DNA from: a virus
Taxonomy: Duplodnaviria > Heunggongvirae > Uroviricota > Caudoviricetes
Virus record (IMG/VR): IMGVR_UViG_2778261593_000004
Span: 1 to 12,717 of that record
Direction: 5' to 3' (one strand)
Length of the DNA: 12,717 nucleotides
Part shown: in pieces, positions 1 to 12,717 of the stretch
How positions within the stretch are numbered: position 1 is the stretch's first letter
How the letters are laid out: each line of letters starts with the position of its first letter
The notes under the pieces: generated by a model
What the model was told of the DNA's origin: nothing
Seen by the model: the letters and a program-made list of their open reading frames with translations, nothing else
Databases searched by the model: none
Translations under genes and position numbers: made by a program

Positions 1-101
1 TAAGTATTCTGCGCAATTTCCCCGACGGTCGCCGGTTCGGTGACGCTTAATTCATTAAACACCACTCTGGCGGTTTCGGTCATATCCTGCTGTTTTAGCA
101 T
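1..101 (-). CDS. Partial CDS (N-terminal 33 codons, continues beyond window start); unknown function
   Basis: ATG at 101..99 preceded by AAGGA-rich stretch; frame open to the window edge (MLKQQDMTETARVVFNELSVTEPATVGEIAQNT...). Hydrophilic, so not holin-like. Lies just downstream of the terminator that follows the Q-like gene. Confidence 0.35.
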   Translation of the reverse strand, partial: MLKQQDMTETARVVFNELSVTEPATVGEIAQNT

Positions 102-224
102 GTCTTTTTTCCTTTTCTGGTTAACGTGACATACCAATAACTCTTGTCGAAAAAGCCAGCAAGCTGAAAGACCGATATTCGGAACCACCAGCGCGTTTAA
201 TGTTCTGTGCCATTTTTCAGGCAT

Positions 225-246
225 AAAAAAACCCGCAAAAAGCGGG
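225..246 (-). terminator. Rho-independent terminator downstream of the Q-like gene (possible tR'-equivalent)
   Basis: Stem cccgc (232-236), loop aaaaa, stem gcggg (242-246); on the minus strand the stem is followed by a run of 7 T (231-225). Located about 80 nt after the Q-like stop. Confidence 0.55.
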
Positions 247-325
247 CTCTTTCAAATGTCCATGTCTGCTATTCGCCTCGCGGTACAGCTTTGCGAAGCG
301 TACCGGAATTGAAGCAGTTTTTACG

Positions 326-892
326 TCAAAAAGCAATAACTTTTTTCTCTATACCAAAAGCCATAACCATTGGTTTGTACAAAATAAATTCTGCCACCTT
401 TAGCCAATGCTCAATGCGTCTTTCACAGGTTCTTAAACTCCATTCCGGGTGTGCATCATTCAGCAGTTCAGCCATTTTGCGCTTAGTCATCCCCCGCCCC
501 ACATAACGCTGACTCAGGACATTGAGCAGCCCGGGATAACCGGCCAGGGCTTCACCAATAACCCTGTCGATTATTAACGCCTCTGAATCGGTACAATGTG
601 CCAGCCAGCTTTTTTGATTGCCGTTGATCATATCCCGCAAAAAAGCCTCAAGTTCAGGTTTGTCCAGGCCCGCTTTTTTCATCCTCCGGAGCGCCTCGTT
701 AATTGCCGTTTTTGTCAGCTTTTTAGAGGTCAGTAATTGGTTGAACATATTTCCCGTCTTACCGCCGCCAATATACGACCAACGCCCCCACATACGCAGT
801 TTCCCCTGGAGCCAGACACTTTCCAGCGTTTTCAGGCGTAAATGCTCACCGCTTTTGCCTGTAATTTCCGGGTATATCATATTTACGCTCAC
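326..892 (-). CDS. Putative late-gene antitermination protein (Q-like)
   Basis: 188-aa ORF. GTG start at 892 overlaps the rusA stop as GTGA (alternative ATG at 880). Sits immediately downstream of rusA and upstream of an intrinsic terminator, the canonical Q position in lambdoid phages. Family assignment is from memory of Q-like prophage antiterminators, not verified. Confidence 0.55.
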   Translation of the reverse strand: MSVNMIYPEITGKSGEHLRLKTLESVWLQGKLRMWGRWSYIGGGKTGNMFNQLLTSKKLTKTAINEALRRMKKAGLDKPELEAFLRDMINGNQKSWLAHCTDSEALIIDRVIGEALAGYPGLLNVLSQRYVGRGMTKRKMAELLNDAHPEWSLRTCERRIEHWLKVAEFILYKPMVMAFGIEKKVIAF

Positions 893-1248
893 TCACTTTC
901 AATTTTGTAAATCTTCACGCCCAGCCGCCCACCAGGAACGACCTGACCGCGCACTATATTGATTTCATCAAACTGCTCGTCGTCTATGAGTAGTCCCGCA
1001 TGCGTCAGCGCATCCAGTGGAGCTTTCAGGATATTGTCCAGGTCACGGCGACGCTTATCCGGTGGCTCTGCAATAATCTTTATCGCCAGCCTTCCGGACA
1101 GGTTTAACTTCAGCCGCTGCTGGCGAACAATGAGCGCCACATCACGGCGATAACGCTCACCGGATTTTGATACAAAATATGTGCTGCCACGACGTCGCCA
1201 GTAGGTGTTCACCGTCGGCGGGTAAGGCAAAACAAACTCTATACACAT
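889..1248 (-). CDS. rusA: Crossover junction endodeoxyribonuclease RusA (Holliday junction resolvase)
   Basis: 119 aa; N-terminal LPYPPTVNTYWRRRG and central DKRRRDLDNILKAPLDALTHAGLL match the RusA pattern (compare K-12 RusA LPWPPSNNRYYR ... [22 protein letters not shown]). ATG at 1248 with AAGAGG 6 nt upstream. Confidence 0.85.
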   Translation of the reverse strand: MCIEFVLPYPPTVNTYWRRRGSTYFVSKSGERYRRDVALIVRQQRLKLNLSGRLAIKIIAEPPDKRRRDLDNILKAPLDALTHAGLLIDDEQFDEINIVRGQVVPGGRLGVKIYKIESE

Positions 1249-1260
1249 CAGTAACCTCTT

Positions 1261-2307
1261 TTACCCGAGCACGCCGGTTGCAAAGGCGTGATCAAGAAAA
1301 CGAAAAATTAAATCAATCTGGGAACCATGCTTTTCTTCGAACGCCAGCGGGTCCGCATGAAGCTCGTTGTGATGCTCCCGACACAGCGGTAGCGTGAAAA
1401 TATCGTGGGCTTTTGTCCCCATTCCGCCCTGACCGTGACCAATCAGGTGATGGGGATCGTCGGCTGGCTTACCACAACACGCACACGGCTGTGTCTTTAC
1501 CCAGCGAGTGTATTTCTCATTTATCCAACGGCGACGTTTAGGCCGCTTCATGAAAGATTCAGGAGACTCCGGATCAACGGCAATACTGACCACCGTCTTT
1601 TCCTGTGGCGGGTTTTGCTGGTGGGCGTGAGGCAGCGGCGCAAGATTTTTTGTGCGCTGCTTCATTATGCTGGTGGCAGTCTGCTCTCCCGGTATGATGT
1701 CGCTTTCGCGGTACACTGAGCGGATTTTTTCCGCACGCAACCCCAGAGAACGACGCAATACTGTCTCAGGTAATGCGTCCGCCACCTGATTGCAGACCGC
1801 CCACCAGGATAATTCAGCCAGCGATAATTCCCGCTCCTGTGTGCCATTCATTGCATGGCGTATGACGTCAGTCATCCAGGCTGCCAGGTTTTGTTGAGCA
1901 AGTTGCTCAAGTGATTCGGATGTCTGGTCACGCAGCTGGTTGTCGCAGTGCCAGCACAACACCATTGCGCCGGTACCGTAACGATGTATGACGGTTTCAC
2001 TGTGATGGTAGTCACCATGAGGCCACTGGCAGGATTTGACATGACGCAGGAGCCAGTCAGACAGTGCACCAGCGCCGCCGGCAGCACGAATCACCCGCTC
2101 ATCGCTGAAAAATGGCAGTAATGATTTATCTTCCGCCAGCGGCTGGCGAACGGCGGGAACAACTCCGGACGGCAGACCGCGCATGCTTTTTGGCTCCGGT
2201 TCAACCAGCACTCTGCCGTTATGGAATACCTGCATGGATTCACGACCTGGCTTAACGATAACCACCCCAAGTTCCGGCACCAGAACAGGTCGAAGTAATA
2301 CCCGCAC
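1261..2307 (-). CDS. DUF968-like prophage protein (YdfU-like) with C-terminal Cys/His-rich HNH-like motif
   Basis: 348 aa; C-terminal CACCGKPADDPHHLIGHG...LPLCREHHNELHADP metal-binding motif. GTG start 1 nt after the stop of the upstream ORF with GGAGG embedded in that ORF's last codons (translational coupling). Same neighbourhood as ydfU in Qin-type prophages (from memory). Confidence 0.7.
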   Translation of the reverse strand: MRVLLRPVLVPELGVVIVKPGRESMQVFHNGRVLVEPEPKSMRGLPSGVVPAVRQPLAEDKSLLPFFSDERVIRAAGGAGALSDWLLRHVKSCQWPHGDYHHSETVIHRYGTGAMVLCWHCDNQLRDQTSESLEQLAQQNLAAWMTDVIRHAMNGTQERELSLAELSWWAVCNQVADALPETVLRRSLGLRAEKIRSVYRESDIIPGEQTATSIMKQRTKNLAPLPHAHQQNPPQEKTVVSIAVDPESPESFMKRPKRRRWINEKYTRWVKTQPCACCGKPADDPHHLIGHGQGGMGTKAHDIFTLPLCREHHNELHADPLAFEEKHGSQIDLIFRFLDHAFATGVLG

Positions 2308-2308
2308 G

Positions 2309-2581
2309 TTACCTCCAGATGCGTTGCTGGAATGTGCGGGACGGACGCGGTGGGCGTTCGGAATAAGGGAGTCTGACGTAGATTATCCAGTGACGATAAT
2401 CGAGGCTGAGGGCTTTCCTAAACTCATACCCACGTCTGCGGTAGTTATGAATCAGCCATTCGGCCTGTTCTTCAGTGCAGGGGTCGTGCTGATACCAGTC
2501 ATATTTGAATGTGTGAGAACACCGCCCGTGCCTGCTGGCACGAACGGTATCAGAATTGTGTAATTTGGTCTTGTGCGCCAT
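2309..2581 (-). CDS. Small prophage protein (90 aa), rem-like by position only
   Basis: ORF with ATG at 2581, stop TAA directly abutting the downstream GTG start; basic, Cys/His-containing. Weak RBS. Identity not recognised. Confidence 0.5.
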   Translation of the reverse strand: MAHKTKLHNSDTVRASRHGRCSHTFKYDWYQHDPCTEEQAEWLIHNYRRRGYEFRKALSLDYRHWIIYVRLPYSERPPRPSRTFQQRIWR

Positions 2582-2629
2582 CTGTTTTCTCTGCTGGCGC
2601 AGCAGGTGCCAGTTGTTCAGGCTAGCGCG

Positions 2630-2675
2630 ACAGATTGTAACTCATAAATAATAAAAAAGACAAAATCTGCCAAAA
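2630..2675 (-). promoter_or_regulatory. Candidate sigma70 promoter for the 90-aa/ydfU-like/rusA/Q gene string
   Basis: On the minus strand: TTGTCT, then about 18 bp of AT-rich spacer, then TACAAT, in the AT-rich gap between the 273-aa gene stop and the 90-aa ORF start. By-eye match only. Confidence 0.25.
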
Positions 2676-2695
2676 AAAACTAAAAACAAGTTCGG

Positions 2696-3517
2696 TTAAG
2701 ACACCTTCCTGAAAATTACTAGCGGTGTCATACCATAGGAAGTTTCGCTCCTCCCAATCATTCCACGAATACCTTCAAGCATATAGTCTATTGTGCCTCT
2801 GATTTCGTCAGAAGGAAATATTGACTCTGAAACTGTCTCGTCACTTATATCCGGGAGCGCATCTATAACACCGATGACATACCATTCACCAGGTATTCTG
2901 GAACCATACTTTAATGCAAGATTTCCCACATCTAAAGCTAAATCATCAGCCTTGACCGACATCCAGAATATATTTTCTTGATCGTCAAGAAGCTCTATCT
3001 GTGTAGAGAACGGGAGCAAAGAAAACATGTCAGCAGCCATTTTAGCATGATAAATTTCTTCTTGAATATCTTTTTTCTGAGCTGGTGATTTAGTCTGCTT
3101 TAGTTCTTTTTGTTTTGCATCTTTATATATAGGGAGAACATCATGAGCCATTTTCACATCAAATAATTTGATATGCCCTTTTACCATCACCAGACTTCCA
3201 ATTTCTGCATTTTCTAAGCTCGTTGCCACCAAGCCTTGTTCGTGCAACTTATCAAAAAAATTTAATGGTAAAGACCATGATGAGTCAAAATGCCGCTCTT
3301 GCGTTTTTGCAAAAGAATCCCCCGCATTTTTCCTGGCATTAAATAATGAAACGCCACCTTTAAGTTCATTTAATGAATGCTCAGAACTGGACGAGATTTG
3401 TTTTACAGCATTCAATACTCCTGATGGAAATAATTGCGCAGTGAAGTAACCTACGCGCTCTTTGTCAAGATAAAGGTAATCAAATAGTGAATCTACGGCT
3501 TGACAATCTTGATCCAT
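2696..3517 (-). CDS. Hypothetical protein, 273 aa, unknown function (AT-rich cargo gene)
   Basis: Long ORF. Start chosen at ATG 3517 (MDQDCQAVDS...) because GAGGAG lies 7 nt upstream; the track's upstream ATGATG at 3586 has no SD. No transmembrane stretch or recognisable catalytic motif seen. Visibly lower GC than flanking phage genes. Confidence 0.7.
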   Translation of the reverse strand: MDQDCQAVDSLFDYLYLDKERVGYFTAQLFPSGVLNAVKQISSSSEHSLNELKGGVSLFNARKNAGDSFAKTQERHFDSSWSLPLNFFDKLHEQGLVATSLENAEIGSLVMVKGHIKLFDVKMAHDVLPIYKDAKQKELKQTKSPAQKKDIQEEIYHAKMAADMFSLLPFSTQIELLDDQENIFWMSVKADDLALDVGNLALKYGSRIPGEWYVIGVIDALPDISDETVSESIFPSDEIRGTIDYMLEGIRGMIGRSETSYGMTPLVIFRKVS

Positions 3518-3659
3518 TGGCATGCTCCTCTTTGATCCTTGCTTTTTCCTCAGCAATTTTTCTTTGCTTTTCTTCGATTTCATCATACATCAATTGCATT
3601 TCAGTGATGTCGAACGGCTTTGAACCACTTTTAAGCAATCTCACCAGTTTGCGGATCAT
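3480..3659 (-). CDS. Small ORF (59 aa) overlapping the start of the 273-aa gene
   Basis: ATG at 3659 with GAGGAG 7 nt upstream; MIRKLVRLLKSGSKPFDITEMQLMYDEIEEKQRKIAEEKARIKEEHANGSRLSSRRFTI; stop at 3480 overlaps the downstream start by 38 nt in another frame. Below the track's length cut-off. A promoter-like AT-rich stretch lies upstream (about 3665-3760, minus strand). Confidence 0.3.
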   Translation of the reverse strand: MIRKLVRLLKSGSKPFDITEMQLMYDEIEEKQRKIAEEKARIKEEHANGSRLSSRRFTI

Positions 3660-3770
3660 TGCGTATCTCCTCTTAAATATCGTTCAAATTATGTTCAAAC
3701 AAATTCTCAAACACAACAATGTAATGCATCAATATTTGGGTGCGTTGAGGATGCCTGACACATCAGAGGT

Positions 3771-3792
3771 GGCGAGGGATTTCTCCCTCGCC
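3771..3792. other. Perfect 9-bp stem-loop immediately 3' of hok (hok mRNA 3' structure)
   Basis: ggcgaggga (3771-3779), loop tttc, tccctcgcc (3784-3792); 8 nt downstream of the hok stop on the minus strand; no U-tract follows, so not a canonical intrinsic terminator. Confidence 0.45.
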
Positions 3793-3799
3793 AGGTCTC

Positions 3800-3955
3800 T
3801 TACTCCTCAGGTTCGTAAGCTGTGAAGACAGCGACCTCCGTCTGGCCGGTTCGGATTCGTACCTCACAGAGGTCTTTCCTCGTTACCAGTGCCGTCGCTA
3901 TGACGGTTAAACAGATGACGATCAGGGCGATTAACATCGCCTTTTGCTGCTTCAT
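3800..3955 (-). CDS. hok: Hok-family type I toxin (HokD/RelF-like), 51 aa
   Basis: Translation MKQQKAMLIALIVICLTVIATALVTRKDLCEVRIRTGQTEVAVFTAYEPEE is an essentially exact Hok-family sequence. Below the ORF-track length cut-off, so found by manual translation. Confidence 0.9.
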   Translation of the reverse strand: MKQQKAMLIALIVICLTVIATALVTRKDLCEVRIRTGQTEVAVFTAYEPEE

Positions 3956-4011
3956 AGCCTGCTTCTCCTTGACCTTTCGGTCCGTAAGAGGCTAATCTCT
4001 ATGTGTCGCAT
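3952..4011 (-). CDS. Short leader ORF (19 codons) translationally coupled to hok (mok-like)
   Basis: ATG at 4011..4009, MRHIEISLLRTERSRRSRL, TGA stop overlapping the hok ATG (ATGA). Hok loci normally carry an upstream overlapping reading frame (mok) that controls hok translation. Confidence 0.4.
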   Translation of the reverse strand: MRHIEISLLRTERSRRSRL

Positions 4012-4075
4012 AGATATGGCCTCAGATTAATGTTAAGCGTCTTGCCGGACGCCGAATGTTAACTGGGGCTTTTCT
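3969..4075 (+). ncRNA. Candidate Sok-like antisense RNA with its promoter (boundaries approximate)
   Basis: Plus-strand TTGACC (3969-3974), 18-bp spacer, TAATCT (3993-3998), giving a transcript antisense to the hok leader/mok-like start; downstream nested inverted repeats (4033-4062) and ctatctgcc/ggcagatag (4073-4109). The 3' end is not defined by a clean terminator. Confidence 0.3.
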
Positions 4076-4511
4076 CTATCTGCCTTTTGGTGTTCATGCC
4101 TGAGGCAGATAGCCTCAAGCACCCGCAGCAATTCTAACTATCCAATAGATCAATGCCAACTTCTTTTCCTGCAACATCTCTCAACATAAGTGACCAAAAT
4201 TCACCCAATCAGCACAAAAGAAACATTTAAAGCGTGAATGCTACCGAACGTTCATTTCAATTACATCGTTTTGATTTTTAACAGTTTTCACCTCAACAAA
4301 TCAAATGGCATTAGCATTCATCATGGAAGAAAGACTGATAAAAATGATCATTTTCAATGACTTATGATCACACCGGGTATTGCCAAGTCATTCCTTTTAC
4401 GCCAGGATACCCACAAGTAAGTAGTCGAGGAGAGTTTGCCAATTTTTGCGATATAAATTTCAATGTCCGAAGAACCATTAATTGTTAATTGATTCTGTAT
4501 AAGGTTTTAAC

Positions 4512-5609
4512 ATGACAATTTCATATATTCCTATTCTGAAAGCGAAGCGTTCTGAGTTATCAGCTTTATCGCAGCTATCCATTGAAAAGAAATCAAAAAT
4601 TTTGCCATTACTCGAAATTGAACCAGTGCCAATTGACCCTGATTCAGGTATTGCCTTAAAGAGTTATAACGAGACTCTTATAGAGTTCGGAAAGAAAGTC
4701 TCAAAATCTTGCTCAGATATGCAAGGTGTTTATATTGATGGATTATTAATTGAAGAGCATTTTATTTCGCCTGAAGATCATTACCCTATAATAAATGCGG
4801 TTAATCAAGTTAGAGATATGGGGATAAGAGTTATTCCTGTCAGTTCACCAACTCGCCCATCTAACTATAAAAGAGCGATTGATGAATTAATACAGAATGA
4901 AATATGCTTGAGATTAACCACGTTAGATCTGGTTAACCCACAATTAATAACGCATTACATTCATCATCTGGGAATTCCTTTATCAAATATTGATATAATT
5001 ATTGACTTAAGAGATGAGTTAACCGAGGATAAACTTAATTCCGGCGAACTATATACTTTGGCAATGGGATTGATAAACAATCTGGCGCACCTCAATGAAT
5101 ACAGAAAAGTGATTCTTTCTGGGGGTTCATTTCCTACAGATCTCAGTGATATTTCTGTTGGTCTATATTCTCAACCTCGAATCGAGTGGATTTTATGGCA
5201 GAGTTTAATGAATAGAAAAGAACTTGCCAGAAATGTGATTTATAGTGATTATGGAGTACAGCACCCCGACTTTAATAGGCTTTCGACGCGATTCCCTAGC
5301 GTATCTGCCAGCGTCAGATACTCTGGAGATAATGACTTTTGGGTATTTCGAGGAAGAGTAGCTAATCGCTTTGGTTATGAACAATATGGTAAACATAGTG
5401 AGGATATTCTTGCTCATCGAGAATATTCAGGGCCTACATTCTGTGCGGGAGATAGAGACATAGAATATTATGCAAACGAGTATCAAGCCTACAAAGCCAA
5501 TCCCTCTGGTAACTATAAATTTGGTAGCCCAGAGGTATGGCGTAGGATTGGGCAAAACCATCACATAACTAAGGTTGTTGAGCAACTCGCCACTCTTTAC
5601 GGGCTTTAA
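4512..5609 (+). CDS. Beta-protein family protein (sce7725-like), 365 aa
   Basis: ATG 4512 with AAGG 7 nt upstream; N-terminus MTISYIPILKAKRSELSALS matches the Y-x-P-I-L-K opening I associate with the Pfam Beta_protein family (memory, unverified). AT-rich; the only sizeable plus-strand gene between 326 and 10249. Confidence 0.8.
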   Translation: MTISYIPILKAKRSELSALSQLSIEKKSKILPLLEIEPVPIDPDSGIALKSYNETLIEFGKKVSKSCSDMQGVYIDGLLIEEHFISPEDHYPIINAVNQVRDMGIRVIPVSSPTRPSNYKRAIDELIQNEICLRLTTLDLVNPQLITHYIHHLGIPLSNIDIIIDLRDELTEDKLNSGELYTLAMGLINNLAHLNEYRKVILSGGSFPTDLSDISVGLYSQPRIEWILWQSLMNRKELARNVIYSDYGVQHPDFNRLSTRFPSVSASVRYSGDNDFWVFRGRVANRFGYEQYGKHSEDILAHREYSGPTFCAGDRDIEYYANEYQAYKANPSGNYKFGSPEVWRRIGQNHHITKVVEQLATLYGL

Positions 5610-6147
5610 GTTTAACTCGAACAGCTTCACGAAGCTCGCCAACATCCATACTATTGGCGAGTTTTGACCATAAGACGCGTTTAGGTTTATTTTTCAAATT
5701 CTGTAGCTCCCCTACATCACTTAATAGGGAAAGCAATTCATCTTTCCAAAGAAGCATTGTTAAGGAAAGTTTGTCCACTTGTGGATTCAACTTGCTAGTT
5801 CGAATTGTTTTTAAATGGATACCTTGCCGTGCACCTTGCGTAACTTGCTTTATCCCCCACCATGATGGAACTATGCTTAAAGCATCATAAAGATGGCAAT
5901 CAGAGACAACCAACGTTACTTTATCCATCACTGATGAGTAATGTTGCACCTGCGCTGGTAATCTGAGCAAGTTATCACTCTTGCTCTTCAACTCATAACC
6001 ATGTATAAGTCCATTGATCACTGCTATATCAGCTCTGCTAGCCCCTAGATTCATCGTAAACTCATCAATGATTAGGGTGTCAGGATCTTTATGATGATCT
6101 CTCAGAATCTTGGCATGCACAGCCTTTCTTACATCAATGTCTCTCAT
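5569..6147 (-). CDS. PD-(D/E)xK nuclease-fold protein (sce7726-like), 192 aa
   Basis: N-terminal region shows hydrophobic-D (TLIIDEF), RADIAVING, then HGYELKSKSD: a D ... E-x-K arrangement typical of restriction-endonuclease-fold nucleases. Weak SD. 3' end overlaps the convergent Beta-protein gene by 41 nt. Confidence 0.75.
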   Translation of the reverse strand: MRDIDVRKAVHAKILRDHHKDPDTLIIDEFTMNLGASRADIAVINGLIHGYELKSKSDNLLRLPAQVQHYSSVMDKVTLVVSDCHLYDALSIVPSWWGIKQVTQGARQGIHLKTIRTSKLNPQVDKLSLTMLLWKDELLSLLSDVGELQNLKNKPKRVLWSKLANSMDVGELREAVRVKLKARKEWRVAQQP

Positions 6148-6179
6148 ACCATAGTTGCGCTTTCATCGACTCTCTCAAG

Positions 6180-6198
6180 CCATGATTCTATATCATGG
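6180..6198. promoter_or_regulatory. Palindromic candidate operator upstream of the nuclease-fold gene
   Basis: ccatgat-tctat-atcatgg, perfect 7-bp arms, centred about 40 bp upstream of the ATG at 6147. Confidence 0.3.
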
Positions 6199-6452
6199 TT
6201 CGCATGAATGCCATTTGATATGACCAGTGGTTAAACATTGCACAGAAAAGTGGATGTGTATTTTAACAAAAGCAATGACGGCTAACCATGTTGGTATGTC
6301 GATAAAATGTTTCAACGTAAGCATTATCTGTTCCGCCCTTTCAGACGGCCTCCTGATGTTCTGAGGGTGCAGAATCCCTCCGGTTAAGGATTTAATAAAA
6401 TTCACTTCTGATTTAAATTTTCAGTATTTTGTTGTCAGGTAGTTTATCGCCT

Positions 6453-6764
6453 TTATGCTTCAGCCTTATTTCTCAGCCATACACAAACAGGACCATCTTC
6501 AGTGTCATGAATGGAACCAATGAACCAGCCATCACCTTCCGGGCGCTCCGGTTTCCAGGAGGCAATATCGGGACCATCTGCGTCCAGATTAAAATTATCT
6601 TCATCCATAGTTCTGATGGTCCATTGAAGATTATTTTCCTCCATCCATGCGTTAAACTCTTCCGTTGAAATATGTTCTCTACCATCACAGAATTTTTCAT
6701 ACTCAGGATGCGTCCAGCAGCCATATTCATCACGTATTACTGGTATTTCTCTAATTTCATTCAT
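6453..6764 (-). CDS. Strongly acidic small prophage protein, 103 aa, unknown function
   Basis: ORF with about 26 Asp/Glu versus about 9 Lys/Arg by hand count; 8-nt overlap with the upstream ORF suggests coupling within the nin-like gene string. Confidence 0.55.
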   Translation of the reverse strand: MNEIREIPVIRDEYGCWTHPEYEKFCDGREHISTEEFNAWMEENNLQWTIRTMDEDNFNLDADGPDIASWKPERPEGDGWFIGSIHDTEDGPVCVWLRNKAEA

Positions 6765-7014
6765 TTCTGTTCTCCCACGTTTTCAGACTTTCACCACAGA
6801 ACGGGCAAAAGCACATTGCAACGCCACGACCGATATATTGCCCAGAGTGAATTTGAGCAATATCTAAGCCTGACTCGCCAGTGTTTATGTTCACACGCTC
6901 CGGGATAAATATCCCTTTACTCTTGAACGTTGGATTTCCATATTCGAGAGATTTTGATAACGCCGCGCACGGCTCTATCTGATTGCCATTAATCTGACAT
7001 TTTGATTCACTCAT
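6757..7014 (-). CDS. Small Cys-rich (zinc-ribbon-like) protein, 85 aa
   Basis: Cys pairs near both ends (SKCQINGNQIEPC ... CFCPFCGE); ATGA overlap with the upstream ORF. Confidence 0.5.
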   Translation of the reverse strand: MSESKCQINGNQIEPCAALSKSLEYGNPTFKSKGIFIPERVNINTGESGLDIAQIHSGQYIGRGVAMCFCPFCGESLKTWENRNE

Positions 7015-7217
7015 TGCTTGAATCCCTCCCGAAGCTGTTCTGCACAGTGCAGCAGCGCATCAGTCACTTCTTTCACCGTAACGAGATCGCCATCGTCCAG
7101 TCCTGCAATTTTTGCGTGCCTGACAAACGCCGCGCAAAGGTCGTTAAACGCCCCAGCCCGCACATCCGCCAAGAAAGCGTTAGCAGCAGCCAATTCCTGG
7201 TAGTCAATCTTGCTCAC
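7011..7217 (-). CDS. Small nin-region protein, 68 aa
   Basis: GTG at 7217 with AGGAGG 6 nt upstream (preferred over the track's ATG at 7247, which has no SD and a larger overlap); 4-nt overlap with the downstream ORF. Confidence 0.45.
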
Positions 7218-7947
7218 TGGTTGCCTCCTGGCAAAGCTGGGCGACAATATCGCGATATTTATTCAGCTCCCGCAGCGCGGCACAGACTCGCTCCCATTTC
7301 CGGATATCACTTTTCGCCCGACGCAGTTCGCGGTTTGCCTGTCGCAGCGATGGCAGAACCAGATTATCCACTCGCTTCTCAAGCGGCTGCACAATGTCCG
7401 CCACAGTTTCTGTTTTAATATCTTCCTGTGTTGCAGCTTCCTGTACTGGTAACGCAACACATGCAGGCTGAGGAAAGGCTTTACCATCAGTTTCCGCTAC
7501 CGATGCCGCTTTCGGCTCTGCTGGTAAATTACCGCCCGGCATGCAGTAACGAAATTTACCGTTCTGATTAACACGAATCAGACGACCTTTGCTGATTGCC
7601 ATTGCCAGCGTTGAAGCCACTTTGCGGGATGTTGTACCGAACAGCGTAGCCAGTTCATCCGCCGTTTGTGGTCCGCGTTGTTCAATCGTCGCGGTTAAAT
7701 CGCACTCTGAGATTTTCGCTACTGTCGCCGTGGTGGTTTCTTCCGGCTGTTCTTCTGGCGCTGGCTGTTCCTGCTGAACGTTGTTATCAGCCACACGCCA
7801 GGTGTATACGCTTTTATCAACGAAGCCAGCCTTTTTCAGTTCCCACAGCTCGTTCAGTACTTCTTCACGACTGATATCAAGTCGCGCAGCCAGCTCTACC
7901 GACGTGGCTTTTCCCATCGCTTTCAGTGCGTCAAAAACTGTCTCCAT
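7204..7947 (-). CDS. Prophage protein with N-terminal winged-helix-like domain, 247 aa
   Basis: Start placed at ATG 7947 ([43 protein letters not shown]) with GGGAGG 8 nt upstream; the track's upstream extension lacks an RBS. Confidence 0.65.
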
Positions 7948-7981
7948 TAAAATTTCCTCCCGGTAAAAATTACTTCTCAAC

Positions 7982-8647
7982 TCAAACAAAACCAGCCGCT
8001 TTCCGGCGTTCATATTCCTGTTTCAGTAACTCAATTGGCGTTGGCCCCGACGGGCGTTTGGGTGCCGCCAGTTGTCGCCGGACTGGCGGAACGCTCAGGC
8101 CGTTACTAACATGCTTTGCCCATTTCGTCAGCTGCCGTTCTGCAAGCCGTTTTAATTCCCCTTCGGTCATCTGGCGCTCAATCCCCTTTGAACGCATCTC
8201 GAGGCAAATGTGATACAGCACAGGCTGAGACCACGGGTATTTATCGCTTCCGTCGTATCGCCAGGACTCGTTGCGCCAGCGTCGGTACTCCTCCATCACG
8301 TTATCCACCGTCAGACCAAATGGATTTGCCCCGCTCTCCGAAATCAGCGCCACAAACTCAGCCAAGTCCGGAGGCCATGTTTCACCTGCCCTGCAACGGT
8401 CCATGCACTGGCGGCAGACCAGCCGGATTTGCTGCTCAGTCATCGCGCCAATCTGTGCAATCCAGAGCTTCGAAGGTGCGGCCCCGTTCTTCTGGGTCCA
8501 GCGGTTCGAATAAACCTCCCCCATGAGTTCCCACAGCTTCCACGCCGTTTCCGTCGCTGATAAATCCATTTTCACGTTCCCACTGCTCACGTGCTGCCCG
8601 AATTTCCTGAACTGCCCGTGATGCGGTGCCACCTGGTGCGGCTGCAT
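7982..8647 (-). CDS. Replication protein P-like (DnaB helicase loader)
   Basis: C-terminal half ([15 protein letters not shown]...[21 protein letters not shown]...[14 protein letters not shown]) resembles lambda P as I recall it (YPWKS...LTDAELRRKAADEL...IPEPVKQLP). The 5' end is uncertain because of a 212-nt overlap with the O-like ORF. Confidence 0.7.
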
Positions 8648-9476
8648 GGCTCACCCCCTTGCTGACTGGTTTAACCTGCGCCCTGACGTGATTTACGTGA
8701 CGGGCGAATTTCTGCTCCCACTGAACCTGCGTAAATACTTTCCCCTCCGCTGCCCAGTAGTCCCGGAAGGCGGCAAGTTCAGCAGGTGTAAATTCCGGCT
8801 CCGGCAAAGCCATCCCCCACACCGCAGCCCGTCGTCGAAAATCCCGTGACGGATGCCAGCTATCGGTCATCGGAAATTTTCCGATGGGTTCGCTCAGGCC
8901 ATCCAGGAATACGGGTGGCACTGCCTGTAACGACAAAACTTCCTGCTCACTGGTCGGAGCACTCTCGCGTGCATTATGTGTGGGGTTTAGATCTTTGGGT
9001 TCCTTTGGGTTCCGTGATCCGTTTTTGGGTGTCTTTGATGGAAAATTTGGGTGTCTTTGGTTATTTTCCATGCAGCTAAGAGTTCCGTTTTTGGGGCTGT
9101 TTTGTGCTGAAACATAACCATTTTCGGTACTGTTTTTATTAACAGTACCAATTTTACCCACCTTTAAAGACTCCCGTTTTTGGGTGTATTCAGGCTCGGC
9201 AACGCTTTCTTCTACACCGATAAGTCGGTACACTACGATTTGCTTTGTTCGGCCTTTTCTCTCACCGGTATCAACAATTAACCCAATCTCCATCAGGTGT
9301 CGTAAGCTGTCCTGCACAGTCTTTTTGTTCAGCTCCGTTACTTCTGCCAGTGCAGATACAGACGGGTATGCACACAAATCGGCACCGCACATATCAGCAA
9401 GCCAGGTCAATACTGACTTACTGGATGAACTGCCGGTTTTCACCTTTTTAGCCCATCGTAGTGCATCGATACTCAT
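8436..9476 (-). CDS. Replication initiator (O-like): N-terminal wHTH domain, low-complexity linker containing origin iterons, C-terminal domain
   Basis: ATG 9476 with AGGGGT upstream (the track start at 9551 is TTG). N-terminus MSIDALRWAKKVKTG...LMEIGLIVDTGERKGRTKQIVVYRLIG is HTH-like; the origin-type iterons fall inside the K/N/P-rich linker coding region, as in lambda O. Confidence 0.7.
   Translation of the reverse strand: MSIDALRWAKKVKTGSSSSKSVLTWLADMCGADLCAYPSVSALAEVTELNKKTVQDSLRHLMEIGLIVDTGERKGRTKQIVVYRLIGVEESVAEPEYTQKRESLKVGKIGTVNKNSTENGYVSAQNSPKNGTLSCMENNQRHPNFPSKTPKNGSRNPKEPKDLNPTHNARESAPTSEQEVLSLQAVPPVFLDGLSEPIGKFPMTDSWHPSRDFRRRAAVWGMALPEPEFTPAELAAFRDYWAAEGKVFTQVQWEQKFARHVNHVRAQVKPVSKGVSHAAAPGGTASRAVQEIRAAREQWERENGFISDGNGVEAVGTHGGGLFEPLDPEERGRTFEALDCTDWRDD
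8982..9191. repeat. Candidate replication origin: iterons, AT-rich tract and 9-bp-arm palindrome, inside the O-like gene
   Basis: Iterons ccgtttttgggtgtctttg (9019-9037), gaaaatttgggtgtctttg (9041-9059), ccgtttttggggctgtttt (9085-9103), cccgtttttgggtgtattc (9173-9191), plus degenerate tttgggt copies at 8994-9010; AT-rich 9106-9165 containing ggtactgtt-tttatt-aacagtacc (9126-9149). Confidence 0.55.
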
Positions 9477-9999
9477 ACGAACCCCTGGCAGACATTTGTT
9501 TATCTGCAAAGTAATATTGGTATTGCTGACGATACGCACGCTTGAAAGCAATGGCTTTTTCTATAAGCTCGTCAGTCTCACGTTCCACAACAGCTGGATC
9601 CGCAAAAAGCAGCCCGGACTCCACCACATCGCCATATTCTTTGTTTAACCCGGCGATCATGTACGTAATGCTTTTTCCGTCAGTAATTTCACAATACAAC
9701 CTGAAATCGCTGATCCGGATAGCCTCCATAATTGCCGGAATCAGCGCCGTGAATTTTTCACGCTTATCCCTGGTGTCGATAGCTTTCCAGCGTTCGAATA
9801 TCTTCACCCTGTTAACGCCCAGCGCCCGTTGATCAACCGCGCCATCATCAAACGTGACGCGATGAACATCGATGTTCGGGCGTTCTTTCAGAGCCCAGAA
9901 TGCTTCCGTGATTAATATCGTCGCCTGCTCCTGCGTCATTCCTGGTCGGCATACCCAGGCATCCAGAGCCTCGCGAGCCTGCTCAGGAGTGAATATCAT
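9448..9999 (-). CDS. YdaT-like (CII-analogue) prophage regulator, 183 aa
   Basis: Segment ERWKAIDTRDKREKFTALIPAIMEAIRISDFRLYC resembles the YdaT core as I recall it (REKIQKLIPAILAIL...RLC); sits directly downstream of the Cro-like gene, as ydaS-ydaT in Rac. Confidence 0.6.
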   Translation of the reverse strand: MIFTPEQAREALDAWVCRPGMTQEQATILITEAFWALKERPNIDVHRVTFDDGAVDQRALGVNRVKIFERWKAIDTRDKREKFTALIPAIMEAIRISDFRLYCEITDGKSITYMIAGLNKEYGDVVESGLLFADPAVVERETDELIEKAIAFKRAYRQQYQYYFADKQMSARGSYEYRCTTMG

Positions 10000-10249
10000 T
10001 GTTCACCGCCAGTGATTCATTCGCTGTAGGCTTAATCCTGCCAATAGTCAAAACCGCATCAGCAGAAAATAATCCGTTTGATGCCAGAGCAATTTTTTCA
10101 GCGTAATTTGTTTCGCCTGTATATTCTGTGCGCGGTAATTTTCCATTATTCATCCATTTGTAGATTGCTCTTTGGCTGACACCGCAAACATCGGCTACAA
10201 CAGAAACGCGAACTGCTTTGATTACATCTGCAAGTGTTGTATGGCTCAT
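9983..10249 (-). CDS. Cro-like HTH regulator (YdaS/DicC-like), 88 aa
   Basis: Start at ATG 10249 (MSHTTLADVIKAVRVSVVADVCGVSQRAIYKWMNNGKLP) with a GAGGGTG SD; HTH-like VSQRAIYKW; divergent from the DicA-like repressor. Confidence 0.65.
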   Translation of the reverse strand: MSHTTLADVIKAVRVSVVADVCGVSQRAIYKWMNNGKLPRTEYTGETNYAEKIALASNGLFSADAVLTIGRIKPTANESLAVNNDIHS

Positions 10250-10328
10250 ATCACCCTCACAATGTGAACTTTGAGTACACAATATAACAGAACTGACAGT
10301 ACATTCAATAGTAAATATCATTGAACTT
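10250..10328. promoter_or_regulatory. Divergent promoter/operator region of the immunity switch
   Basis: 79-bp AT-rich gap between the divergent cro-like and dicA-like starts; repeated GAACT (10265, 10291, 10323) and AGTACA (10274, 10298) motifs; the dicA-like ATG has no SD, suggesting a leaderless or short-leader mRNA. Confidence 0.5.
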
Positions 10329-10748
10329 ATGGTTCATGAAGATGAAGCGCGTAAAGAGTTCGCCAGCAGGCTTGCGCTAGCCTGTGATAATGCTGGTTTT
10401 GAACAACACGGAAGGCAGGCAGAAATTGCCCGTCGAATGAAGCTAACACCCAAAGCGGTTAGTAAATGGTTTAATGGAGAGACAATTCCCCGTCGAGAGA
10501 AACTGAAAGAATTGGCAGCACTTATCGGAACAACACCAACTTACCTTCTGGGGGAGGACACTGAAGAAAGCGGAAGCCTGCGTTTCTATCAGGAGTTAAG
10601 TCCGAGGCAAAAAATCATCATTGAACTTCTTGATGAACTCCCTGACAGTGAAACTGATGAACTTTTAAAAACTCTTGAGGAGAAAAAACAGAAGTACAAC
10701 GCAATTTATGAAGAATTAGCGCGAAAGAAAAAACAAAAAGCCTCCTGA
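10329..10748 (+). CDS. dicA: DicA-like XRE-family repressor, 139 aa
   Basis: HTH region (EIARRMKLTPKAVSKWFNGETIPRREKLKELAALIG); C-terminal LSPRQKIIIELLDELPDSETDELLKTLEEKK resembles K-12 DicA (LSPKELELLELFNALPESEQDTQLAEM, from memory). Supported by a downstream DicF-like RNA and DicB-like start. Confidence 0.65.
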   Translation: MVHEDEARKEFASRLALACDNAGFEQHGRQAEIARRMKLTPKAVSKWFNGETIPRREKLKELAALIGTTPTYLLGEDTEESGSLRFYQELSPRQKIIIELLDELPDSETDELLKTLEEKKQKYNAIYEELARKKKQKAS

Positions 10749-10752
10749 ATCT

Positions 10753-10786
10753 GCATAAATCCGGTAACTTCCCTCCGGGTTTATGC
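10753..10786 (+). other. 12-bp stem hairpin after dicA-like stop, followed by a C-rich tract
   Basis: gcataaatccgg-taacttccct-ccgggtttatgc (one G-U wobble), then ctcctcccccccctcct; no U-tract, so not a canonical intrinsic terminator. Confidence 0.35.
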
Positions 10787-11050
10787 TCCTCCCCCCCCTC
10801 CTGGTACTTTATCTCTCATAAAATGTACTAAAAGTACTTTACATTAGTGAACAAAAAGTACATCATATCAACCAACCCACCCCGTCCCACAGAACGCAGG
10901 GCAATACTTCGAGTTACCAGGCAGTGGTCAGGGGTTAAGTAGCCAGCCCGAGACGTAAGAACATGACGGCAGGGTTCAACTTTAACTATGCAGCAGGTTT
11001 TTGTTCCGCTACCCCGGCGTTAAGGGGATACGGCATTGCGAGGAATCACT

Positions 11051-11257
11051 ATGCAGAAACGAGAACCCGTCATCATCGCGCCAGACTATACCGATGATGA
11101 ACTTTATGAGTGGATGCGCGGGAAGATACGCGCCATTAATGACCTGAAGCAGGCCACTGATCACAAAGAGCGCCTCTCTGAAACACTGGCGTCAGTGACG
11201 CAGGATATTACCGCTCTGGCAAAAAGCGCGGCATTAAACGTTTCGCGAGTGATTTAA
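11051..11257 (+). CDS. Small prophage protein, 68 aa (YdfA/B/C-region analogue by position)
   Basis: ATG 11051 (MQKREPVIIAPDYTDDELYEWMRG...) with GAGGAA 5 nt upstream; first gene after the dicA-like repressor on the same strand. Confidence 0.5.
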   Translation: MQKREPVIIAPDYTDDELYEWMRGKIRAINDLKQATDHKERLSETLASVTQDITALAKSAALNVSRVI

Positions 11258-11281
11258 AACCACCGACTGATGAGGTTGACT

Positions 11282-11920
11282 ATGGAATTTAAAGATTTAC
11301 CAATTTCAATACAGGAAATGGCCGCTGATGTGATTCGCTCGCAACTGGCGCGGAACCCAATGATATTAGTAGATAAACTGTTCATCAGAAATTTATCAAA
11401 TCATGTCCGCAATTCCTTTACCGGACTGTATTCATATTCGTTCACAAACAATCATTGTGTAGAAAATAAAGCAAAACTCATTGCAGAAACGACAGCGCAA
11501 AACATCAACACGAAACCAACGGAAGAAGAAATTGATCAGTTTGCTCATGATGCTGGTTTAAAAAACAAGGAAGAAAAATCGCCATATGCGGGAAACATGT
11601 TTGTTTATGACAACCTTATCCGAATTCGTGGCGAAATTCCGACTGAATACCTGGCAAAAATTCACCAGGCATTACTTAAAAATCTGGAAACGGAAGTATT
11701 TGATGGCAACACCAACGGCTCCTTCGTGGTGTCAGCTCTCGCAAAAGAGTGGGATAAAGATAATCGCTGGAATGTTGCTACATGGTTATTCAGCAACAAA
11801 GCTTCCGCCCTGGAAGCTGCGGCGTGTATTTGCGACCTGCTAAGGACAGACCGCAAATACAACCTGGATGTGTATAGCTATATTTATGCTGAACACTATC
11901 CGCTATGGATTAACTGGTAA
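11282..11920 (+). CDS. Hypothetical protein, 212 aa, unknown function (AT-rich cargo gene)
   Basis: ATG 11282 (MEFKDLPISIQEMAADVIRSQL...) with GAGG 6 nt upstream; visibly AT-rich; no recognisable motif. Confidence 0.6.
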   Translation: MEFKDLPISIQEMAADVIRSQLARNPMILVDKLFIRNLSNHVRNSFTGLYSYSFTNNHCVENKAKLIAETTAQNINTKPTEEEIDQFAHDAGLKNKEEKSPYAGNMFVYDNLIRIRGEIPTEYLAKIHQALLKNLETEVFDGNTNGSFVVSALAKEWDKDNRWNVATWLFSNKASALEAAACICDLLRTDRKYNLDVYSYIYAEHYPLWINW

Positions 11921-12130
11921 TTACAAAGCTGTACCAGCAGGGCCACGACGACCAGCACCACGATTGTAATCAATGATGCCATTATAAAGCGCATTATTTA
12001 ATTTATCGTCGAATGCCGATTCTGTGAGTCCTAGCTCTGAATGAGTTTTTAATAACCCTGATTGCCTGAGTTGATTAACCAGGCATTCAATCTGTTTTTC
12101 AATAAGCGGATGTATTGGCTTGTTTGGCAT
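11921..12130 (-). CDS. Small protein, 69 aa, unknown function
   Basis: ATG 12130 (MPNKPIHPLIEKQIECLVNQLRQSGLL...) with GGAGGA 4 nt upstream; its stop codon directly abuts the stop of the convergent 212-aa gene (TAATTA). Confidence 0.45.
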   Translation of the reverse strand: MPNKPIHPLIEKQIECLVNQLRQSGLLKTHSELGLTESAFDDKLNNALYNGIIDYNRGAGRRGPAGTAL

Positions 12131-12458
12131 TTTATCCTCCATTGAGGTTACTGGTTGAGAATGGAGACCACACGTGACAGCGTGTTGTCGTGCGCCGGAC
12201 ACGGATAAGAATCCGGCACTGACAGTTTACTGAAAGGATATATCCCTGAAAAGTCAGGGCATAACGCGAAAGCGCACGGCGAAGTTATTTCTCCCTCTGT
12301 TGCGTGCCACCGGCATCTTCGACCGTGCGCTTCCGGTTGTGGCAATCCGCGAAATGGCGCGGCGGTAAGTATGGCGAGGCTATCCTTTCCTCGAGATAAC
12401 ACCGGGTTGTCAGGTTGACCATACGCCTGAGTGACAACCCCGCTGCAACAACCCATGT

Positions 12459-12511
12459 TGATTACCTTTTGGCGACATCAGTTTCATTGCTGGCTGATGT
12501 CCGCCCTTTTT
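12459..12511 (+). ncRNA. dicF: DicF-like small RNA with intrinsic terminator (boundaries approximate)
   Basis: ttttggcgacatcagtttcattgctggctgatgtccgccctttttaaag: an 11-bp stem with one bulge (12471-12505) followed by 5 T; pattern resembles K-12 DicF as I recall it (uuuggcgguaucaguuuu...cugccgcccuuuuu); lies between dicA and a dicB-like start, as in Qin. Confidence 0.45.
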
Positions 12512-12672
12512 AAAGTGAATTTTGTGATGCGGTGAATGCGGCTCAGCGCACGCGGAACAGTTAAAACAAGCAACCTTATGGGTGAAATACTCCGGCGTTA
12601 ATTGTTAACTGGTTAACGTCACCTGGAGGCACCAGGCACCGCATCACAAAATTCATTGTTGAGGACGCGATA

Positions 12673-12717
12673 ATGGAAAAGTTATCATACAATGCCAGTA
12701 CGTCTGAACTTCGTTTC
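12673..12717 (+). CDS. dicB: Partial CDS (first 15 codons), DicB-like cell-division inhibitor
   Basis: ATG 12673 with GAGGA 7 nt upstream; MEKLSYNASTSELRF compares with K-12 DicB MKTLLPNVNTSEGCF (memory); continues beyond the window end. Confidence 0.45.
   Translation, partial: MEKLSYNASTSELRF

Follow-up and report, generated by a model that had tools for sequence, protein, structure and literature searches.

The gop-β-cII locus of satellite phage P4 protects E. coli from phages λ and P1 (Rousset 2022, PMC9122126), and a phage gene, orf184, triggers cell death via this locus (Silas et al., bioRxiv 10.1101/2023.04.06.535777). Its three genes are non-essential to P4 and form a variable defence hotspot (PMC9122126), and gop is toxic without β according to Ghisotti 1990 as cited in Rousset 2022 (PMC9122126). 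A second defence system, PD-λ-2, has a HigB-like protein as component A, a toxic Xre-peptidase as component B and, as component C, a protein that was described as "related to a P4 phage antitoxin" (Vassallo 2022, PMC9519451) and is needed for defence but not for toxin neutralisation (PMC9519451). In a stretch of 12,717 nucleotides of viral DNA (IMG/VR record IMGVR_UViG_2778261593_000004, positions 1 to 12,717; hereafter the window) we found a gene of the Beta family (4512..5609, + strand) that faces, and at its 3′ end overlaps, a gene of the sce7726 nuclease family (5569..6147, − strand). The window contains no gop, A or B gene, and the pair is therefore neither of the two systems but the two-gene form of their common part. 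We propose, with a probability of about 0.5, that it is a self-contained cargo ("moron") of two horizontally mobile genes in a lambdoid Stx2e prophage, a minimal Beta/cII core that serves as an anti-phage module with the nuclease as effector, Beta as sensor or regulator, and expression coupled through the overlap.

Relationship of the pair to gop-β-cII and PD-λ-2

The 365-residue Beta protein, with the N-terminus MTISYIPILK, matched Pfam PF14350 (Beta_protein) at 178.2 bits against a gathering score of 27 (E 4.1e-52), residues 5-356 aligning to positions 1-341 of the 342-position model. The 192-residue nuclease matched NCBIfam NF033832 (sce7726_fam) at 191.1 bits against a cut-off of 70 (E 1.7e-56); its family, for which Pfam has the newer name PF26915 (Phage_P4_cII) with precomputed matches on close homologues, comprises 5,437 clusters at 50% identity. 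The searches placed neither protein in an unrelated housekeeping family, and the matches do not arise by chance, the hidden Markov model (HMM) E-values being of the order of 1e-52 and 1e-56. The initial annotation of the window had named both families, and these assignments stand apart from the label "sce7725" that it attached to Beta. We dropped this label as unverifiable: no NCBIfam model matched the Beta proteins of the window, P4, Gordonia or even Sorangium (E <= 0.01-0.1), and the sce7725 model is possibly absent from the release.

P4 has the layout gop (247-648, +), β (651-1718, +) and cII (1746-2540, −), with β and cII convergent as in the window. P4 β is a "beta family protein" and P4 cII belongs to the sce7726 family (NF033832, 151 bits). 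The window Beta falls in the same Pfam family as β, and a profile of window-like Betas matched P4 β at 1.7e-10, the match between the PADLOC "beta" model and the window Beta being weak (2.8e-4). The window nuclease, convergent to Beta as cII is to β, matched the PADLOC "cll" model at E 2.4e-28 and resembles the N-terminal 184 residues of cII, and both loci are non-essential cargo in a mobile-element hotspot. They differ in their carrier (a lambdoid prophage versus a P4-like satellite), in the ~80-residue C-terminal extension that cII has and the window nuclease does not, and in the 27-nt gap with an annotated terminator that separates β from cII where the window genes overlap; identity between them is low (~22% for β and ~28% for cII). 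The gene for gop, a small membrane toxin, is present in P4 and not in the window: a tblastn search of the window and 83 loci with P4 gop gave nothing below E = 2.8, gop being found in P4 alone, and the 556 bp upstream of Beta hold the hok/sok regulatory RNA and no open reading frame (ORF) with family support.

The third component of PD-λ-2 is likewise a Beta-family protein. The window Beta matched the PADLOC PD-Lambda-2_C models at E 1.3e-41 (PDLC03983), which is far weaker than a genuine E. coli PD-λ-2C (517 bits). Iterated A and B profiles found no HigB-like A and no Xre-M78 peptidase B among the window ORFs, and the Enterobacterales prophage form of the pair, including that of the window, has no operon gene upstream of Beta.

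The gene names are already assigned automatically (PGAP labels the two genes in E. coli genomes "beta family protein" and "sce7726 family protein") and Pfam and PADLOC already imply the P4 ancestry, so that nothing here is categorically new. As far as we found, the searchable literature contains no account of the pair without gop as a widespread two-gene unit. The module had been called uncharacterised in the initial annotation, which is true of the two-gene form but not of its identity as the β-cII core of P4 gop-β-cII or of Beta as PD-λ-2 component C, two links that had gone unrecognised.

Predicted folds and invariant residues

The nuclease has the αβββαβ core fold of PD-(D/E)xK enzymes followed by a C-terminal helical domain, and its motif D40...E52-L-K54 bears out the D...ExK nuclease signature with which it had first been described. 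E29, D40, E52, K54 and Q66 were identical in 214/214 homologues, P4 cII included; active-site invariance was checked in two sets, of 43 and 214 sequences, and E29, D40, E52 and K54 were fixed in both. From the fold and the invariant E-D-ExK-Q site, an active Mg-dependent nuclease is expected. MmcB-like/SPO1766, NucS, Can2, SfsA and other PD-(D/E)xK nucleases have the core fold and the D...ExK arrangement in common with sce7726, but identity to them is <20%, and the C-terminal helical domain and the Beta partner are features of sce7726 itself.

Beta was predicted to fold as a (β/α)8 TIM barrel of alternating β and α elements (AlphaFold2, predicted local distance difference test score 92.8), and a Foldseek search with this model returned TIM-barrel matches exclusively, all of them generic (template modelling score ~0.3-0.4). 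Family-invariant residues include Y5, P7, L9, K12, E15, D76, R134, D165, R223, D246, R269, Y270 and H351; in a 26-sequence alignment with P4 β and PD-λ-2C the invariant positions were Y5, P7, L9, E15, P32, P109, D165, D246 and H351. K12, D76, R134, D165, R223, D246 and R269 lie at or just past the C-terminal ends of barrel strands, which is where TIM-barrel enzymes bind their substrates, and by this analogy the invariant charged residues probably mark an active or ligand site. An HMM search of PDB sequences found nothing for either the Beta or the sce7726 family, and PHROGs files both proteins under unknown function.

A frame-locked overlap of the coding ends

The two genes share a dual-strand coding segment of 41 nt (5569..5609), exactly as first annotated, in which Beta residues 353-365 and the stop codon lie opposite sce7726 residues 180-192 and the stop codon. 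An ORF-calling artefact was ruled out because the 3′ ends are set by stop codons. Relatives dereplicated at 85% identity formed 76 lineages, of which 69 were convergent and overlapping, 3 were convergent with a short gap and 4 were without a full-length Beta. Overlap length in the 69 lineages ranged from 11 to 158 nt with a median of 50 nt, and its frame was 2 mod 3 in every case (69/69), as it is for the 41 nt of the window. The distance from the codon for Beta H351 to that for sce7726 W186 was exactly 30 nt in 68/78 loci. Nucleotide conservation followed Beta codon positions 1 and 2 upstream of the junction and nuclease codon position 2 downstream of it, and within the ~12-nt junction core (5583..5594) all three codon positions were fixed because Beta Q-L-(A/S)-(T/N/S), Q358-L359-A360-T361 in the window, is encoded opposite nuclease W-R (W186-R187). 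The conserved cores of both genes thus abut without a spacer, and the short, variable, low-confidence tail of each protein is read from the conserved end of the other gene. As far as we found, a frame-locked antisense coding junction across phyla has no description in the searchable literature.

Sister contigs of a second E. coli variant (L176-L181), in which the nuclease stop codon comes 48 nt earlier and the overlap is down to 11 nt, show that stop codons drift in steps of 3. P4, with its extended cII and 27-nt gap, is a rare escape from the overlap.

The overlap may be a frozen accident, the product of a single spacer loss that has been kept since indels damage a conserved C-terminal end, with the two genes expressed independently. 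Strong dual constraint is indeed confined to ~12 nt, the tails beyond being variable and predicted to be disordered; overlap length drifts via stop codons, in 3-nt steps between 11 and 167 nt; both genes have been kept after moving apart in P4, L013, L014 and a group with 69-70-nt spacing; and terminator-like hairpins are weakly enriched just past the stops. We nevertheless rate this explanation somewhat below an even chance, given that the overlap has been kept in 69/72 convergent lineages despite ~60-70% protein divergence, in Proteobacteria, Firmicutes, Actinobacteria, Chloroflexi, Acidobacteria, the candidate phyla radiation (CPR) and others, and that escape by duplicating a few codons is easy yet happened rarely, which argues for some selective retention.

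Convergent transcripts with overlapping 3′ ends are a feature of type I toxin-antitoxin (TA) loci of the B. subtilis txpA/RatA and bsrG/SR4 class. The window pair resembles these loci in its convergent genes and complementary 3′ ends, but neither partner is a non-coding RNA: both encode conserved proteins.

Transcription signals

A putative sce7726 promoter was located at 6180..6214 (−), a sigma-70-like site 30 nt upstream of the nuclease start with -35 ATGGCA (6214-6209) and -10 TAGAAT (6190-6185) preceded by TG-n, giving 9/12 consensus matches. Enterobacterales relatives have a conserved extended -10 element, TGnTATA, at the corresponding place, 40-80 nt ahead of sce7726. Across the putative -10 lies a perfect 7-5-7 palindrome (CCATGAT-ATAGA-ATCATGG, 6198-6180, −) that could be an operator; a palindrome of such size is not rare by chance within 300 bp, and this one is not obviously conserved among relatives. 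The region upstream of Beta (4400..4511, +) is AT-rich and has AAGG, a Shine-Dalgarno-like sequence, 7 nt ahead of the ATG.

A consensus scan found no canonical terminator near either stop codon of the pair. A 13-bp hairpin followed by a U-run (5630..5670, +; z = -2.45 for the RNA fold of 5590-5700 on the + strand), which lies within the nuclease gene at 20-60 nt beyond the stop codon of Beta, is a possible 3′ end of the Beta transcript, and RNA folding of the overlap itself was unremarkable (z ~0). As there is no conserved terminator between the genes, each mRNA should run at least 41 nt, and probably at least 100 nt, into the other gene. The two mRNAs must be complementary over at least 41 nt; any longer duplex is a prediction from the DNA.

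Prophage cargo slot and neighbouring genes

The segment with the pair is 100% identical to the chromosomes of several porcine enterotoxigenic and Shiga toxin-producing E. coli strains. At least 80% of the length of the 2.25-kb pair segment is held by 93/5,426 complete E. coli genomes (1.7%), and the segment is at least 99% identical across ~88 complete E. coli genomes. The E. coli RM10740 copy is part of a lambdoid prophage with stx2e ~6 kb away, which makes the module the cargo of a Shiga-toxin-converting phage; the stx2eA/B genes of this locus (1876-3111 of L001) stand ~6 kb past the left end of the window, together with tRNA genes and a DNA methyltransferase gene.

Several features of this setting had been noted at the outset and were borne out. 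GC content is 0.34-0.41 over the pair and 0.50-0.58 over the replication genes at 7000-9000, and Beta, described as the only large gene transcribed against the early-right operon, is the sole ORF with family support on the + strand across 326-10321. The gene order of the window (DUF968, small ORF, DUF6414, hokD, [Beta/sce7726], small ORFs, DUF1627, P-like, DnaT-like/O-like, YdaT and Cro-like, then the repressor) can be set beside that of K-12 Qin, ydfU(DUF968)-rem-hokD-relE-relB, and the pair therefore occupies the relBE position of Qin, directly upstream of hokD in the early-right unit, as cargo of the same prophage lineage. The likeness is one of place: relBE has no sequence or fold relation to the pair and is a type II TA operon of co-directional genes.

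A mosaic prophage region, an IS1 element beside the pair in one strain and one rearranged IMG/VR copy might be taken to mean that the genes are decaying remnants without function. We consider this hardly credible, as both ORFs are full length, have all invariant residues and are at least 99% identical in ~88 genomes. The IS1 insertion, in strain SA53 (Escherichia phage Rac-SA53 KU052037 14602-17627), is upstream of sce7726.

Directly downstream of the pair and on the same strand as sce7726 is an intact hok/sok type I TA locus (3800-4124, −), which comprises the hokD ORF (3800-3955; Pfam HOK_GEF, E 1.7e-23), the sok RNA (3953-4124; Rfam RF01794, 107.5 bits) and a putative hok mRNA promoter (4159-4131; 10/12 consensus match), so that read-through from sce7726 would traverse Beta in antisense and then enter hok. 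A second AT-rich cargo gene, encoding a 296-residue DUF6414 protein (2696-3586, −; Pfam E 1.7e-7, PHROG 9699 of unknown function, GC 0.37-0.40), lies between the DUF968 gene and hokD, at the place of rem in Qin; it had no match in PADLOC or NCBIfam and may be a further candidate for a moron or defence gene. The DUF1627 protein gene (7204-8013, −) had a weak PHROG match to "Ren-like exclusion protein" (E 5.9e-5), below stronger matches of unknown function.

Distribution and co-occurrence of the two genes

A scan of 185,579 species genomes yielded 450 loci with a sce7726 relative. Among the best 80 of these 450, Beta was directly downstream and convergent in 77, two of the three exceptions being contig ends, and the taxa represented were Proteobacteria, Myxococcota, Acidobacteriota, Firmicutes, Actinobacteria, Chloroflexi, Armatimonadota, Melainabacteria and two CPR lineages. 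The pairing suspected in the initial annotation thus recurred in homologues, in 77/78 evaluable genome loci and in 43/43 viral loci found via Beta, the latter including Betas 27-36% identical to that of the window. The broad Beta alignment (A3) proved too diverse to find loci with, and the survey from the Beta side is therefore biased to window-like and moderately divergent Betas. Pairwise distances of Beta and sce7726 were correlated (Mantel r = 0.69, a value reached by 0/2000 permutations).

The pair also occurs in Gordonia phages Powerball and DumpsterDude and on plasmids of Rhodococcus, Agrobacterium, Sinorhizobium, Bacillus and Acinetobacter. The second E. coli variant, in prophages L084-L086 and many IMG/VR loci (L182-L209), is 53% identical to the window pair, encodes proteins of 355 and 206 residues with a 59-nt overlap, and sits elsewhere in lambdoid prophages, in the moron slot that separates the Rz/lysis genes from terminase Nu1. 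The context of the pair and its relatives is one of mobile elements and cargo: AT-rich DNA, moron slots, plasmids, integrases, and scattered Kiwa and restriction-modification neighbours. A flanking-gene scan, done without a baseline, had a mobile and defence flavour and revealed no conserved third gene except PD-λ-2-type partners.

This distribution bears on the idea that the genes serve the phage itself, in DNA metabolism or lysogeny: the nuclease (MmcB-like, and called cII in P4) and its TIM-barrel partner would work on phage or host DNA, for instance in repair, recombination, replication control or counter-defence, and so favour their carrier without excluding competitors. Such a role is improbable for genes so patchily distributed (1.7% of complete E. 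coli genomes; 450 loci in 185,579 species genomes), which are found also in non-phage chromosomal islands and beside TA-like toxin modules, and whose P4 counterparts, with gop, are non-essential occupants of a variable defence hotspot (PMC9122126).

The same survey bears on an addiction or stabilisation module, that is, a TA-like selfish element for prophage, plasmid or island with no anti-phage role. Sequences at the edge of the nuclease family include orphans that are often disrupted, for example by Tn3 at the junction or with a Beta remnant, and in one IMG/VR prophage (L123) Beta is truncated at residue 232 and sce7726 is on the same strand, pointing to rearrangement. The pair does stand in the relBE slot beside hok/sok, it does occur on plasmids and integrative elements, P4 β is described as the gop antitoxin (PMC9122126), and the overlap of coding ends makes the genes inseparable by recombination and so enforces co-inheritance. 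The existence of intact orphan sce7726 without Beta, and of Beta without sce7726, means that neither looks like an obligate antidote, however, and relatives of the pair came from functional anti-phage selections (PMC9519451, PMC9122126). Type II TA operons, moreover, consist of co-directional, co-transcribed genes, unlike this convergent, two-promoter layout with separate upstream regions. On balance we think an addiction module unlikely. The narrower idea that Beta is the essential antitoxin of the nuclease lost weight, as Beta is degraded but the nuclease intact in four lineages.

PD-λ-2-like operons that end in the pair

In 13/80 genome loci two genes stood ahead of Beta in its operon, one for a PD-λ-2B-type Xre-M78 peptidase (E 1.8e-150) and one for a HigB-like or DUF6932 protein. 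PD-λ-2-like operons ending in the Beta/sce7726 overlap were found in many phyla (L021, L039, L043, L045, L048, L053, L059, L060, L075, L077, L078, L081 and L083, together with L087-L090). Four loci picked via the peptidase alone, from Pseudomonas, Chromobacterium, Dongia and Halomonas, all ended in Beta-sce7726 (4/4), with overlaps of 56, 56, 47 and 32 nt. PD-λ-2-like operons outside E. coli therefore usually carry a fourth, convergent gene, sce7726, which is absent from the published and PADLOC three-gene definition and, as far as we found, undescribed in this position. The A position was often taken by a DUF6932 protein of 160-210 residues in place of the HigB-like protein (L087:3468-4004, L089:3381-4004, L090:3489-4004, L039:8865-9380), and it therefore seems exchangeable.

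The window lacks A and B, and the validated E. coli PD-λ-2 lacks sce7726. We rejected a hidden sce7726 gene in the latter, a DUF6119 or hypothetical gene being its neighbour instead and the clone extending 396 bp past C. In E. coli PD-λ-2 the convergent gene ~260 bp downstream of Beta encodes either a DUF6119 protein of 549 residues (L091:5833-7482, −) or a 317-residue hypothetical protein (L092:5780-6733, −).

A proposed role in defence

The folds, the invariant catalytic residues, the linkage of the genes, their homology to parts of validated systems and the cargo setting are observed, whereas the phenotype (defence or abortive infection), the division of roles and the antisense coupling are inferred. 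The pair would most likely protect the lysogen from other phages. The Beta TIM barrel would be the sensing or regulating, enzyme-like component, a role suggested by the neutralisation of gop by β in P4 and by the need for Beta for defence in PD-λ-2, and sce7726 would be a nuclease effector, or a second effector beside gop or the HigB/Xre-peptidase modules. Each gene would have its own promoter and an mRNA that extends into the opposite gene, and convergent transcription or an RNA duplex would couple the expression levels of both.

A number of observations weigh against such a protective role. PADLOC calls no system at the window pair. Protection by P4 is known for the three-gene locus, in which the contributions of β and cII were not separated (PMC9122126), and no dissection of β or cII was found in the searchable literature on gop-β-cII. 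Near-perfect matches to the PADLOC PD-λ-2 models in A, B and C occur at E. coli loci that are without sce7726, and the ECOR42 PD-λ-2 clone, which reached 396 bp beyond C, was too short for an intact copy; Beta-dependent defence can therefore work without the nuclease. Conversely, lineages with a truncated or missing Beta (L012, L063, L123 and L175) have kept an sce7726 gene whose active site is intact, and Beta is thus not the indispensable antitoxin of a constitutively lethal nuclease. Enrichment of defence genes around the loci is modest and has no baseline comparison. As for coupled expression, the region upstream of Beta has no sigma-70 match above background and no conservation among relatives, and terminator-like sites lie past the stops in 25/67 loci against 11/67 on the control strand, a weak enrichment that is not conserved as a class.

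A more far-reaching version of the defence proposal is that Beta and sce7726 together form an ancient immune (or addiction) module of two proteins, autonomous and the true core of the gop-β-cII/PD-λ-2 family, to which interchangeable add-ons (gop, HigB, DUF6932 and the Xre-peptidase) have been joined, with the overlap as an expression-coupling device kept by selection in at least 8 phyla. We regard this as speculative and rather doubtful. If it were true, the antisense overlap would be a protein-coding counterpart of type I TA antisense control.

Implications for phage defence and prophage cargo

The Beta-nuclease core links two systems that were described separately, P4 gop-β-cII and PD-λ-2, and it also stands alone in Shiga-toxin prophages, on plasmids and in phages of many phyla. 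In its two-gene form it escapes current detectors such as PADLOC, and our results suggest that the three-gene definitions of PD-λ-2 would miss the fourth, convergent nuclease gene in most lineages. The antisense coding overlap is a clean natural case in which to consider expression coupling by convergent overlap and the evolution of proteins encoded on opposite strands. The minimal pair is, in addition, the simplest setting in which to ask what the Beta TIM barrel, a component required in a validated defence system, does biochemically.

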